Shown: piece after piece, positions 55,965-61,456 of the stretch
How the letters are laid out: the number at the start of each line of letters is the position of its first letter
Numbering within the stretch: position 1 is the stretch's first letter
Assembly: GCA_017654855.1 (NCBI GenBank)
Contig: CM030337.1
Location: forward strand, 3,596,001 to 3,660,000
Length of the DNA: 64,000 nucleotides
Reading direction: 5' to 3'
DNA from: Podospora anserina
Taxonomy: Eukaryota
Translations under genes and position numbers: made by a program
Notes under the pieces: model-generated
What the model was told of the DNA's origin: nothing
What the model saw: only the letters and a program-made list of their open reading frames with translations
Database searches by the model: none

Positions 55965-56878
55965 GAGAAAGTCGGCTCAAAGGAGCCTCTGGCGATTTAA
56001 CCAGCGTCATTACCACCGCCATTTCGTTCGCGGAGATCCGAATTGGTCTCAAGAAGTCGATATTTTAGGATCAACCAGTTGCGGATCGATACATGGCACA
56101 CTACGTCTTATTCTTCCTCCGAACCGATACCGTGGTAAAAGCGGTGCCACCTATCCGGGGAAGCCTGGATCAGACATCAATCTTCAGGAGCGGTGCTCAG
56201 TTCACAAAGGCCGAGAGGCCTGGACTCTTCTGGCGCATTTGCACGCCCACAGCACTTTTCGCCATCAATCGGCGTTCTCTCCATTTGCCCTCTCCTCGCT
56301 TTTTTATTAATGTGCATCAACAGTGGGACATGGCGTTCAGGATGGAGGCTGGTTAGTATGCCCGAGTTTAGCGGCATCAAGATTACGGGAGATAGCTTGG
56401 TCAAACAGAACGCAGTTGGGATTCTTCTCTTTAATGACTGTCTGGAAATGTGCGCTATGCTGTTTTGTTTTGCTGTTGTGGAAGTAAAGTTATCATGTCT
56501 TTTCACTTTTCATTGCATTTATAGAGTAATAATCTCACGATACCACACAGATTTATTTCTATTGATTGTTTATCTATCAATCCAATCCTCGCAACGTGCT
56601 ATGTGCTGTTGAGATCTCTCTTAACAGTGTAAAGTTGCACAGTGTGGACGGTGCCAAGAAGTGACAGCTGCCAAGCCCATTGGGCCCCACATGGTCCCAG
56701 CGACAAATGGCAAGGTCCAAAATCCAAGCTGGCCGTGTCAATCGCGTCTTCCACAAGCAGCCGCCTCCCTCGTTATCATATCTGGGTGTCGCAACTTTTC
56801 CCCAGGACTGCACCGTTTAAAGAGCAAGTCAGCACCGAGGAGCAAACAATCATTCAGATCGCCCCAATAGACGTCGAC

Positions 56879-58727
56879 ATGCCTTCTCGGCGATCCGGTC
56901 GTGCTGCGGCCAAACGCGCTCAGCAAGCGCTTGGTAAGTAATTCACTGCAACAAGTCGCACTCCAAAGCTCCTTCTCTCTTCCAGTCACAGTCTCGGTCC
57001 CAATCCCAGTCCCAGTCCAAACTAGGCGCATCCGATCCCCACCACCACATTGTGGCATACCGTTATCCTGCACTCTGGACACTGCCTTTGACCATCAGGT
57101 TGCTAACCAGTAATCTACCATGCCTACAGAAAGCACCCCCAAGAATTTCGAGGGACTCGACGACGAAGACGAGCCCATGCCCGATGTCGATGCCGATGTC
57201 GAGGCCGACGAGGATGTTGAACCCCCGCAAGATGCAGAAGAGGAGGGTGACAAGGACGAAGACTCTGTTGCCGAAGAGGAAGAGGAGGTGGCCCAAGAGG
57301 AAGAGGAAGAGAAGTCGCCCTCACCCCCACCCGAGCCCGTCATCCGCCGCCGTCGTCTCGGCAGGCCCCCGAAGAATCGCCCGCCTGACTGGGACCAGCT
57401 TCCCATTGAGCGCCCCAATGCCGACTCGGATACTCCCCGTCGCCGTGGCAGAGGGGGTTGGCGAGGCCGTGGTGGTCGCAAAGGCCAATACTCGGCACCC
57501 ACAACACAGTCGATCGATAAAGACGGTACTGTCTTGGATATCGTCAACGACGAGGTCGACCTTCCCGAGGATCCTGAGGGTGAGAAGAAGGTGGACAAAC
57601 TGGGCAACCTTCAGGATGGTCGTGAATACCGCTGCCGCACCTTCACCGTTGCCGGCCGCGGCGATCGTCTCTACATGCTCTCCACCGAGCCTGCCAGATG
57701 TGTCGGTTTCCGCGATTCTTACTTGTTCTTCACCAAGCACAAGAAGCTCTTCAAAATTATCGTTAATGACGAGGAGAAGCGCGACATGATCGAACGCGAT
57801 ATCATCCCACATTCCTACAAAGGTCGCAGCATAGGAATCGTGACAGCGAGGTCCGTGTTCCGCGAATTCGGCGCTTTGATCATTGTCGGCGGACGGAGAA
57901 TCATCGACGACTACAACGTCGCGGCAGTTCGTGAGGATGGGGCTGTTGAGGGCGAGTTGGCGGATCCTAACGACATTTACGACCCTTCGCAGCCTTACAA
58001 CAAGAACCAATACGTTGCCTGGCATGGCGCCAGCGCGGTGTACCACTCCAATGCACCTACTGTTCCGCAGCAAAACGCCAAGATCGACACGAAGAAACGT
58101 AGAGTGGCCGTCAACGACATGAATTGGCAACTTGAGCACGCCCGTGAGGCGAGGTATGTATACTCGCTTACCCGACACCTGTCTCCCGCCCGCCACTGAC
58201 ACCTGAACAGCCAATACAACAGCATCCTGACCGATATGCGCCGCCAGAATGTCAAGGGGGTTTACAACGTCATGACCAACTTGATGCACTATCCCCGCAT
58301 CTCCCAGCCAACCCACGCCAGAATCGAACAGGTTCTCGACAGCGGCAAAGGCGAGGACGCCGAAGAGAGCAGCACATTTCCTCCGCTTGAGCCGTCCATC
58401 TCTCGGAACTTTCTGGTCATGGATACCTACATGGAGACGCCCCCGGCCGGCATCTCGCCAGCCGCCTACGAAGTGCCATTCCGCACGTCCCCTGCTGACT
58501 ACGAAGCTTCAGCAGCTGCCGACCCTCTAGCACCATTTCGAGGACTTTCGGTTATATCTGACGACATCATTGCCGAGTTGCCCCCGGATTGCCGGGCTGC
58601 TTTCGACAAGGCCAGACAAGAAGAGGTCGACTGGTTTAACAAGTGGGGCGATGAAGCCAAGAATACTTCAAGACGTGAGCCAATTGTGGACAAGGCCATT
58701 GTGCCGTATCCTGTGATGATGCATTAA
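56879..58727 (+). CDS. NPL6: Chromatin remodelling complex subunit Rsc7/Npl6/Swp82 family (canonical 531 aa; introns 56934-57129, 58154-58210)
   Basis: DPEGEKKVDKLGNLQDGREYRCRTF, LYMLSTEPARCVGFRDSYLFF, IVTARSVFREFGA, GGRRIIDDY. Confidence 0.92.
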
Positions 58728-58786
58728 TTCATGTTTGGAGGAAGTTTTTGTAACTAATCTTTTTTCTTTTTTTCCTTCTTTTTTAG

Positions 58787-59883
58787 TTCTGGGCTCTGGG
58801 TTTAATACTTTGATTTCTGCGTCTGACTTTGTTGGTCTGCACGAGGGGGAACATGGCCCTGGTATTTTTGCCAGTTTGGAGCAGCCTATTTCTGCTGAGG
58901 GTGCCCAGTGGGCTGGGACACTTTGGCCTCGTCCGCAGGCTCATTATCAGGCTGCTCCCGCCGCAGGGTTCACGGATCAGGAGTGGGCGGGTCTGGGGGA
59001 CCATGGGAGAGCGCAGTTCAGCGTTTAGGAAAGACCTGTGCCCTTTGGTCCCCAGGCCGTTCCTTTCGAGAACACCAACATTGCACCCCAAGGCTTTCCT
59101 GTCGAGAACACCAATAACGCCACCGAGACGAAGCCACCGGCCAAGAGGAAGCGTCAGCGAACCAAGAAGGATGCTGTTCCTGAGCCTCCTGCAGTTCGTG
59201 GTGACTTGTTTCTCGATGCCGCCAGCGGCCTGGTTCCAGTTTCTGCTGGGTCAAAGAAGCGAAGGGGCCGTCCTGCTGTTTCGGCTCGCAGCGTTGTCCC
59301 TAATGCTCAATCTACCCCCGGTCTGCCTCTGCTTTCGCCTGCTCCTGCCAAACACTATGGTGCTGGGGTCTTGAACGGTCACGACTCGGTATCAAGCATG
59401 ATAGGGGCCCGGTTTGCGTCTGAAGCACAGTCTATTGCTCAGTCTGTTCCCGACTTGCCGGTGCTTGCGCCCGCCCCGCCCAACATCCATGGCCATGGGG
59501 TTCTGAACGGTCACGACACGGTATCGAGCATGCCTGGGGCCCAGTTTGCCTCTGAGGTACCGCCTGCTCTGTTGAGTGGAAACGCTATGCCTAATGCTCA
59601 GTCTTCCACTGGTCTGACGATTCTTGCGCCTGCGCCGCCCAACAACCATGGCCATGGTCTTTTGAACGGCCACGACACGGTATCGAGCATGCTTGGGGCT
59701 CAGTTTGCAGCTGAGGCAGCGCCTGCTGTTCCGGCGCCGTCGTCCAATGTTGCAGCCGGGTTCCTGAACGGTCACGACACTGTGTCTAGCATGATCGCGG
59801 CTCAGATTCACTCTGGGGTGACGCCTGCTCCGTTGCCGGATTTGGCTGCTACTATGCGGCCGAGCCCGAGGAAGAGGCGTTAA
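58787..59883 (+). CDS. Cryptic terminal exon of NPL6 with one internal UAG (59026-59028); AT-hook and four LNGHD repeats
   Basis: Preceded by branch point ACTAAT, a long polypyrimidine tract and TAG; in frame with the NPL6 donor GTGAGC at 58675; a single stop in ~365 codons. Confidence 0.65.
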
Positions 59884-61456
59884 GTTCAGGTCCTAGGGTC
59901 TTTGTATGTACTATCACGGGATTTGTGTGGCGTTGTTGGGTTTGGTTTTCTAATTTCTGTTTTTCATTTCCGCCAGGTTCTTCTTTTTATTTTCAATGGG
60001 GCCTCTAGTCAGGAGACTTTGGCATTTTCTTTCTGATTTGGGACTACAAGAAGGCATTTACTTGGGGAAAGAAGAGCTATGGGCGTTGTATCGGGAGGGA
60101 CTTATTGTTTGGGAAATGCGGAAAAGAAAATGGAGGAGAGGAAAATTTGTTGGCTTATGTTGGAGTCTCTCTCCCATATTTGGGCTCCCTGTGTGGTTGT
60201 GAGTGGAATGATGAGCACAACGCATGATAAAGGGAGGGCTGCAGGGAGATGTGTGGACTGTGGATGGGAGGAAATGGATAGGCAGGGGGGGGTTTAGATG
60301 GGGAATGGATGTTGTGCTAGTGTATGTGGGTGTTGCCCTGGGATCAATTTCTGTGACGACTTTGTGAGGGATATGTATGGTCAAGAATTATACTGATGAT
60401 AGACTTGAGAGACGCTCTCTGTCATAAGAGTAAATGTTGATTCTGACCCCCAGCAGCTGTTTGACTTGCCATGTGGCGTGTGCAGTACAAAACACTGAGA
60501 TGTCTAGACGTTTTGGAAGAGCAGAAATACGGAGAAGGAGCAAGATTGTAGGGGTGAGTTTATGGAATATGACAGATCTGATGTATACAGAGATGGAGGA
60601 AGCAGCAGATCATGTATTCTGTCTTGTCCCTCCGACTGTTACCCTTCTGTCGTATTCAGTAAGGTGGCAAAACTGTAAAGCATGTATGTAACTGTGCAGG
60701 ATTGGGACCTGTCCACCTCCATCAACTAGGTACCTTGATCATTGAGGGCCTTCCACCGTTTCGAAGCTCCGAGATTCTGCGATTGGTAAGGGGGGTCCCA
60801 ATCTCCAGACACTGATCACCATAAATATGCCAGAACTGTCGACTACGACACCGGCAGGGTACTCCCGCACAAGGAATTCGGGACCGAACGGTCGATAAAG
60901 GGGTTTCCAAGAGTTCTTCTGGCGGCTGCCAAAATACGAATCATGCATCTCTGCCCAAGGCTTGCAGCTAGGTTGGTCTTTTGACGCGGGAGGATGGCAT
61001 CCAATGGCCTAGAGGGCTCGATCGAGATCTTGCATTATCTGCCTTTTTTCCCCCATGCCCATTCATTTAGATGGTCTGTTCCCTCATCCATGGGCTTGCC
61101 TACCCTCTGCTGTCTACCTACTGGGCTCTGTAAGTCTTTTGTGCAACAGCAAAAGTGCATGTGATGGATGTAATTTGTTGCCGATTTGAAGAGAGCGTGG
61201 TTCCAATCCCTTTGTGGCGGGATATGTCTTATCTCTGAGGCTCATCAGGGTAACGTTGTGAAGCCGTTGGAGGGTGCGGCCTGGAAATGTGTGTCCCTGC
61301 CATAGGCAGAGACTGAATCCTCAGGCACGGAAAGTGAAGCAAGCGTGAGGGAGTTTCGAGGATGTTGATTCTAAGGAACCCCACCATGCCATGGACAGAA
61401 CAACTGGCACTGTAAACAGTCAAGGCAACAGAGGATAGTATCCTGAACCACATATC

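Follow-up and report, generated by a model that had tools for sequence, protein, structure and literature searches.

An in-frame TAG behind Rsc7/Npl6 of Podospora anserina as a candidate site of UAG-to-UGG editing

Whether a stop codon within an otherwise open reading frame (ORF) marks a decaying sequence, a wrongly drawn gene model or a codon that could be corrected in the RNA is the question raised by a TAG at positions 59026-59028 of a 64,000-nucleotide stretch of Podospora anserina DNA (assembly GCA_017654855.1, contig CM030337.1, positions 3,596,001 to 3,660,000 of the forward strand; hereafter the window, to which all coordinates refer). The codon lies downstream of the Rsc7/Npl6 gene, in a frame that a sequence-only reading had proposed to be joined to this gene by a two-step switch, namely an alternative intron starting in the last Rsc7 exon, followed by adenosine-to-inosine (A-to-I) editing of the UAG, with products of 531 (unspliced), 594 (spliced, unedited) and 879 aa (spliced and edited), lengths that are arithmetically correct. 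The two steps fared differently: the TAG does interrupt a coding-like frame, in a favoured sequence context and a predicted loop, while the splice to Rsc7 is unsupported. Indirect evidence speaks for a genuine coding frame interrupted by the TAG, and for this codon as a candidate for sexual-stage UAG-to-UGG correction, in line with a known mechanism; the locus is already annotated, and the 5' end of its orphan gene model is probably wrong.

The interrupted frame and its stop codon

The frame with codon starts at positions 1 mod 3, here called f1, extends from 58720 to 59883 with the TAG as its sole interruption, as read directly from the sequence. It is shut upstream by a TGA at 58717 and its first ATG is at 59398, so that the single stop and the late start codon had been described correctly. 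The argument that it is hard to explain as a separate gene, however, overlooks that the downstream frame is the annotated P. anserina orphan PODANS_6_8991. RNA evidence consisted of assembled contigs from four of 16 runs classed as possible RNA, from four studies and of unrecorded developmental stage. The runs were not recorded as RNA and were classed as cDNA by their behaviour; both Rsc7 introns, with GT..AG ends, are missing from the contigs in all four sets, which are therefore taken to derive from spliced RNA. Contigs drop rare variants, and one that spans two genes does not prove a single transcript. The elements of the frame are:

58789 to 59025, + strand: part of f1 upstream of the TAG; 79 codons, no ATG; coding-like, with a codon-usage log-likelihood (LLR) of +11.4
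59026 to 59028, + strand: in-frame TAG, candidate UAG-to-UGG site at A59027; context UU-A-GGAA; read as A in all four contig sets
58983 to 59062, + strand: predicted hairpin, with arms at about 58991-59016 and 59036-59057 and the TAG in the apical loop
59029 to 59883, + strand: main conserved ORF; 284 codons and a TAA; Podosporaceae only
59045 to 59114, + strand: tandem 36-nt (12-codon) duplication in f1, the first copy of which begins inside the intron annotated in the reference model

The position of the UAG in the apical loop of a long stem was borne out by folding, the 86-nt segment 58980-59065 being predicted to form a structure of −41.5 kcal/mol in which the TAG occupies a 13-nt apical loop (z-score, −2.63; 2 of 200 shuffled sequences fold as well). 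Only one of the 518 TAGs on the + strand of the window, each taken with 30-nt flanks, was found with the A in a hairpin loop and a minimum free energy of −25.4 or below, and by these predictions the combination of hairpin and TAG appears unusual. The sequence context, U at −2 and −1, G at +1 and +2, and A at +3 and +4, is present as claimed and fits the published preferences of fungal editing: U at −1 in 86% of the sites, a purine at +1 and, as weak tendencies, U at −2, G at +2 and a purine at +3/+4, 62% of the edited sites being in hairpin loops and the more stable loops being edited more (Liu et al. 2016, PMC4817773). The same source lists 69 genes in which a UAG-to-UGG site falls in an exon wrongly predicted as an intron by automated annotation. 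Editing that corrects premature stops was also described for 71 pseudogene-like genes (Qi et al. 2024, PMC10776026), and is named in a 2024 review (PMC11156358).

Four features associated with such restorative editing were found at this locus, namely a UAG with a coding-like frame on both sides, U at −1 with favourable flanks, a predicted hairpin loop and a stop-avoiding annotated intron that lacks RNA support. Given the coding signals of f1 and an annotated intron that is weak and unspliced, the TAG looks like a premature stop of the PUK1 type, which sexual-stage UAG-to-UGG editing could correct. By comparison of assembled sequences the codon also looks conserved in the Podospora complex: upstream ORFs retrieved from Logan (3 sequences, 36 contigs) end at the TAG, and the downstream ones (5 sequences from 46 contigs, including two P. 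comata-like ones) begin immediately after it.

Beyond P. anserina, homologues of the orphan were found in four more species of its complex, in Cercophora samala and Triangularia setosa and, weakly, in Apiosordaria backusii, with 40-66% identity between genera. An exhaustive HMMER search of 1.84 billion representatives yielded five orphan hits, none beyond this Podosporaceae group save a spurious one; the weak hit P0006 (2511 aa) was discarded as unrelated. The Pfam scan assigned no family to the ORF, and the ESM Atlas gave no usable neighbour. The protein carries basic stretches resembling nuclear localization signals, a basic C-terminus and an RGRP motif, which we take to be AT-hook-like. It also contains four copies of a LNGHD[ST]VSSM...AQFA repeat, the LNGHD[ST]VSSM core of which is nearly invariant across four genera; at the DNA level these appear at 59365-59835 as four diverged 78-nt units, the starts of which are 132, 159 and 102 nt apart. 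The frame is open over all 284 codons in every Podospora-complex sequence retrieved, and in the P. bellae-mahoneyi homologue (P0011; 268 vs 321 aa) one repeat unit has been lost with the frame kept. Adjacency of Rsc7 and the orphan across four genera is indicated by a longest contig of the same size for the two models in C. samala, T. setosa and A. backusii, and by adjacent accession numbers in P. anserina and A. backusii. A metagenome scan for DNA of relatives at this locus found none.

The coding frame upstream of the TAG and the reference model

In the reference annotation the TAG is not met by the ribosome, being removed with an intron that links f1 to a first exon in another frame:

58853 to 58990, + strand: annotated first exon of PODANS_6_8991; ATG at 58853, codon starts at 2 mod 3, 46 codons (P0001 mapped on the window)
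58991 to 59055, + strand: annotated intron, 65 nt, GTCTGG...CAG; it excises the TAG and shifts the frame; kept in all RNA contigs

If this model were right, PODANS_6_8991 would be an independent gene starting at ATG 58853, with a weak or regulated intron and an intronic TAG. A homologous ATG was chosen by the annotators in three genera, that of P. anserina has A at −3 and G at +4, and the pyrimidine tract just upstream of it could presumably be a promoter CT-box. The N-terminal peptides in the mod-2 frame are 46-72% identical between genera. However, the species are closely related, with 92-96% identity between genera for Rsc7, so that conservation of this frame may be a by-product, and the N-terminus is rich in Leu, Arg and Ser, as is typical of off-frame translation. 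The intron, which joins the 46-codon exon to f1 and coincides with the hairpin arms, has a poor donor and no CTRAY branch motif; three RNA-supported introns of the locus carry CTAAC, CTGAC or CTAAT. The corresponding junction, 58990/59056, is absent from the four contig sets, all of which splice both Rsc7 introns. Finally, the C. samala and T. setosa models retain the codons directly after the TAG, and coding in f1 thus appears to reach into the annotated intron.

The frames were compared by means of a codon-usage LLR trained on long ORFs of the window, which picks the correct frame for both Rsc7 exons, exon 2 having been held out of the training. Over 58853-58990 the LLR is +7.9 for f1, −1.0 for the annotated frame and −11.8 for the third frame; over 58789-58852 it is +4.3 for f1 vs −4.5 for the annotated frame, and from 58746 on all 12-codon blocks of f1 are positive except the one that bears the TAG. 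In the calibration the observed value was reached by a fraction of 0.45 of true frames, 0.14 of open off-frames and 0.19 of open windows outside long ORFs, and the likelihood ratio is about 25 if unconditioned and about 3-8 if only open frames are considered.

The pattern of substitutions gives an estimate of a different kind. When the peptides of the annotated frame are compared between the window and T. setosa, 21 residues differ in 39 gapless codons, and the inferred base changes fall 7/15/4 at positions 1/2/3 of the annotated-frame codons, position 2 of which corresponds to the f1 wobble position. An excess of this size was reached in 45-87% of simulations under f1 coding, in 4% under neutrality and in 3% under coding in the annotated frame. 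Three neighbouring replacements that are radical in the annotated frame, for example, leave the f1 stretch WPRPQAHY unchanged.

All in all, f1 is quite likely the coding frame upstream of the TAG, and that of the annotated first exon is probably not a true coding frame. The proposal that f1 behaves as one coding frame on both sides of the TAG is supported by these comparisons to a moderate, not conclusive, degree. The weak donor, the lack of splicing, coding inside the intron, codon usage and the substitution pattern make the reference model doubtful, and its hiding of the TAG is taken to be an annotation artefact of the PUK1-like kind.

Other arrangements around the TAG were considered. A second ATG of the mod-2 frame lies at 59003-59005, in the 5' arm of the hairpin, with the context ACCATGG, the frame being open to 59374. 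Single-intron models were taken from the three ATGs between 58728 and 59030 and had to be open to 59883; among the other GT..AG introns leading from ATG 58853 or 59003 to f1, 26 give an open frame, all of them with non-canonical donors. A programmed −1 frameshift into f1 at C-CCT-TTG (59041-59047) was rejected since the site is within the hairpin and not upstream of it, and a Phe to Leu change in C. samala and T. setosa breaks the slippery run. Similarity of the upstream f1 peptide to the downstream repeats (p = 0.07) and an extension of the A. backusii N-terminus across the TAG (p = 0.05) were also rejected, the stretch aligned in the latter case being downstream of the TAG.

Rsc7/Npl6, the proposed splice and the transcripts

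The absence of an ATG in the upstream part of f1 makes the neighbouring gene of interest as a possible source of a start. The elements that bear on this are:

56879 to 58727, + strand: Rsc7/Npl6 gene, 531 aa; exons 56879-56933, 57130-58153 and 58211-58727; TAA stop at 58725-58727
58675 to 58786, + strand: candidate alternative intron, GTGAGC...ACTAAT...T-tract...TAG, in frame with f1; none seen spliced
59884 to 60564, + strand: 3' untranslated part; transcript contigs end at 60455-60564
59904 to 59976, + strand: minor intron in the 3' untranslated region (UTR), GTATGT...CTAAT...CAG, 20 nt past the ORF stop; joint 59903/59977 in one of four sets

The upstream gene is the orthologue of PODANS_6_8990 and encodes Rsc7/Npl6 (Pfam PF08624, CRC_subunit domain, E 3.8e-56), being a full member of the Rsc7/Npl6/Swp82 family, of canonical length and with the C-terminal motif. 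Its 531-aa product matches P0018, which is counted among the 69 Sordariomycete homologues examined. Lengths are 477-549 aa among these homologues and 512-532 aa among the eight named Podosporaceae models. A loose form of the terminal motif is found 3-7 residues from the C-terminus in 68 of the 69, the window protein included; DKAIVPY is exact in 50 and RREP is present in 40. The model of the S mat+ reference (PODANS_6_8990, 512 aa) lacks the first exon, 56879-56933, and four residues at the exon 2/3 junction (window 58154-58222), and the A. backusii model (515 aa) has the same two gaps; the structure with both parts is backed by the RNA contigs and by six other named models.

The signals of the proposed intron are all present as described. 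GTGAGC at 58675-58680 lies inside the last Rsc7 exon, where it forms the codons CGT-GAG-C; ACTAAT at 58753-58758 is followed by an all-pyrimidine tract up to the TAG at 58784-58786, and a junction of 58674 with 58787 reads C|TT and leads into f1. A donor, branch, pyrimidine and acceptor pattern of such quality occurs twice on the + strand of the 64-kb window and never on the − strand, to be compared with 1.34 ± 1.07 per strand in first-order Markov random sequence of the same composition, so that the intron-like signals alone do not exceed chance. This intron is the sole in-frame route found into f1, and it lacks RNA support: the junction 58674/58787 is absent from all four contig sets, at contig depths of 20-541. 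The donor coincides with the Arg-Glu codons of the near-invariant terminal motif, which the splice would delete. No extended Rsc7 is found among the 69 homologues or the eight named models, a weak test in that a conserved TAG would block such models too, and no fused Rsc7-orphan protein emerged from the search for longer forms or from the HMMER search. Skipping of the last Rsc7 exon to the acceptor at 58786 was rejected, as it leads to the wrong frame. The long Rsc7 isoform postulated earlier is therefore unsupported as a product of this splice.

The contig that codes for Rsc7 runs unspliced through 58675-58786 and 58991-59055 to the end of the ORF in all sets. In three of them one contig reaches 60455-60564; in X13, the fourth, it stops at 59905, overlapping contigs leading on to about 60600. 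The minor intron at 59904-59976 shows that + strand transcription goes on past the ORF. Its joint has a depth of 22 beside contigs of depth 175-325, and its retention indicates that isoforms of about one tenth can survive in contigs. Contig depths (3-6 for the Rsc7 5' contig and 20 for the ORF contig in two runs) cannot rank parts of the gene and were not used. Set X12 contains a 5811-nt contig in which 1.8 kb or more of the upstream neighbour's transcript (56300 and upstream) is continuous with Rsc7 and the orphan ORF, and transcripts overlap or read through along this stretch. The window differs from the RNA sets at 56800 (C>T, two of four), 56854 (T>C, three of four), 59258 (A>G, all four) and 59926 (T>C, all four). 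The change at 59258 corresponds to a Lys/Arg difference between the window and the S mat+ protein, and the four differences are therefore considered strain polymorphisms and not editing. An Rfam scan of the locus gave two sub-threshold hits, both set aside as chance, among them a match to the C/D-box small nucleolar RNA snoR64 at 60362-60453 (22.6 bits vs a gathering threshold of 45; E 0.45), probably a chance one.

Candidate explanations and their meaning

The explanation that we tentatively prefer, at somewhat less than an even chance, is that f1 is a fast-evolving coding frame of the Podosporaceae, the TAG of which would be opened by sexual-stage editing. With this assumption, translation of Rsc7/Npl6 would end at its canonical TAA (58725-58727), and transcripts would continue unspliced for about 1.8 kb through the second coding frame (f1, about 58789-59883), which the TAG would keep silent in vegetative cells. 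During sexual development the ADAT-type A-to-I activity of Sordariomycetes would deaminate A59027 in the hairpin loop, and the edited UAG, read as UGG, would open f1. A preprint on sexual development in P. anserina reports, in the portion available, that ADAT genes are up-regulated, and gives no editing sites there.

Several observations weigh against this explanation. No A>G change is seen at 59027, which is A in all four sets, although contigs drop minor variants and the stage of the runs is unrecorded. The literature searched yielded no genome-wide catalogue of editing in P. anserina, as far as the available portions of the papers show; Pa_6_8990, Pa_6_8991 and the neighbouring identifiers are not named in that literature. 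In a 191-nt context the z-score of the fold is 0.12, the same local stem persisting. Among open frames the codon usage lends f1 modest support, and the substitution test consists of one species pair with 26 inferred changes, of which 22 affect the first two positions, obtained by parsimony from a gapless alignment placed by hand; for the C. samala pair the changes (4.7/5.0/2.3) are too few to discriminate. Presence of the TAG beyond the complex is inferred only from the C. samala and T. setosa models, which resume right after the codon, and within the complex the visible changes of the orphan look near-neutral in our reading. Furthermore, since f1 has no ATG, editing alone would not give a translatable ORF.

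It is on this last point that the two-step switch has its strength. According to it, a stage-specific 5' splice site at 58675 would join Rsc7 codon 514 to f1 and UAG-to-UGG editing would follow, giving an 879-aa sexual-stage Rsc7 in which an AT-hook-like disordered tail replaces the conserved terminal motif. No other in-frame way of reaching f1 from an ATG was found, and the switch uses the best splice signals of the region, CTAAT being also the branch-like motif of the RNA-supported intron 59904-59976. The coding-like statistics of f1 begin near the proposed acceptor, the contigs link Rsc7 and the ORF in every set, and the two genes appear to be neighbours in four genera. The Rsc7 stop is only 125 nt from the next annotated ATG, a small gap beside the reported averages of 303 and 275 bp for 3' and 5' UTRs, respectively, and of 1581 bp for intergenic regions (PMC9801653), and a precedent for alternative splicing with premature-stop editing exists in FgBUD14. 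Nevertheless, the 58674/58787 joint is missing from all sets though a joint of depth 22 survived in one, the donor sits in a near-invariant motif that the splice removes, no extended or fused Rsc7 appears in the homologues, the named models or the HMMER search, comparable signal sets arise by chance 1.34 times per strand per 64 kb, and the rate of evolution of the tail is about ten times that of Rsc7 (40-66% vs 92-96% identity). We consider the switch unlikely, and equally so the corollary that PODANS_6_8991 is the hidden alternative last exon of a sexual-stage Rsc7 isoform in Podosporaceae; a variant with an internal start site in the last Rsc7 exon and the same splice is not separated from it by the data. 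The reference model, with an independent gene and an intronic TAG, has a parallel in the meiosis-specific splicing of weak introns known in yeast (PMC10776026), but the unspliced intron with its poor signals and the codon-usage and substitution data make it very doubtful. That f1 is not translated at all, being a long Rsc7 3' UTR or an overlapping non-coding transcript with an ORF that is decaying or was never functional and with the TAG as a plain stop, would agree with two unused candidate introns and an unedited A59027 in the four sets, with the lack of an in-frame start codon, of a Pfam family and of an Atlas neighbour, and with rapid, near-neutral-looking divergence within the complex. 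This alternative, too, seems improbable in view of 284 codons open in all complex sequences retrieved, a whole repeat unit lost with the frame kept, the nearly invariant repeat core across four genera and the wobble-biased substitutions upstream of the TAG.

The preferred explanation, editing of a TAG within f1, can be placed among systems already described. With the PUK1-like genes of Fusarium graminearum and Neurospora crassa it shares an ORF that is conserved but for an in-frame UAG, the A of which follows a U and lies in a hairpin loop, and an automated annotation that hides the stop in a mispredicted intron (PMC4817773, PMC11156358, PMC10776026). It differs from them in that editing is demonstrated there, the Podospora site being a candidate from the sequence, and in that the Podospora ORF lacks its own start codon, follows another gene at a distance of 60-125 nt on a common transcript contig, and encodes a lineage-restricted disordered orphan instead of a conserved enzyme or kinase. 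In FgBUD14 of F. graminearum a splicing choice and UAG-to-UGG editing meet at one locus, the stop being in an alternatively spliced intron (PMC11156358); both events take place within one gene, whereas the splice proposed for Podospora would fuse an ORF to an independently conserved neighbour. As for the Rsc7 family itself, none of its homologues found resembles the downstream frame. Stop-loss editing, as in DBF2 of F. graminearum, also lengthens a sexual-stage protein by way of an edited UAG (PMC4817773, PMC13123824). However, the Rsc7 stop is a TAA in another frame and thus cannot be read through by UAG-to-UGG editing, and the Podospora TAG is internal to a second frame.

Should neither editing nor splicing occur, the locus would be an ordinary mis-annotated, and possibly untranslated, orphan. 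If, instead, A59027 is edited, it would provide a clear case of restorative editing in P. anserina, a classic genetic model, and would correct gene models in at least seven annotated genomes. The question posed is sharper than in the usual PUK1-like case, the conserved frame having no start codon of its own, so that the route by which ribosomes enter would tell whether editing gates an alternative exon of a chromatin remodeller or an orphan ORF silenced on a 3' extension.

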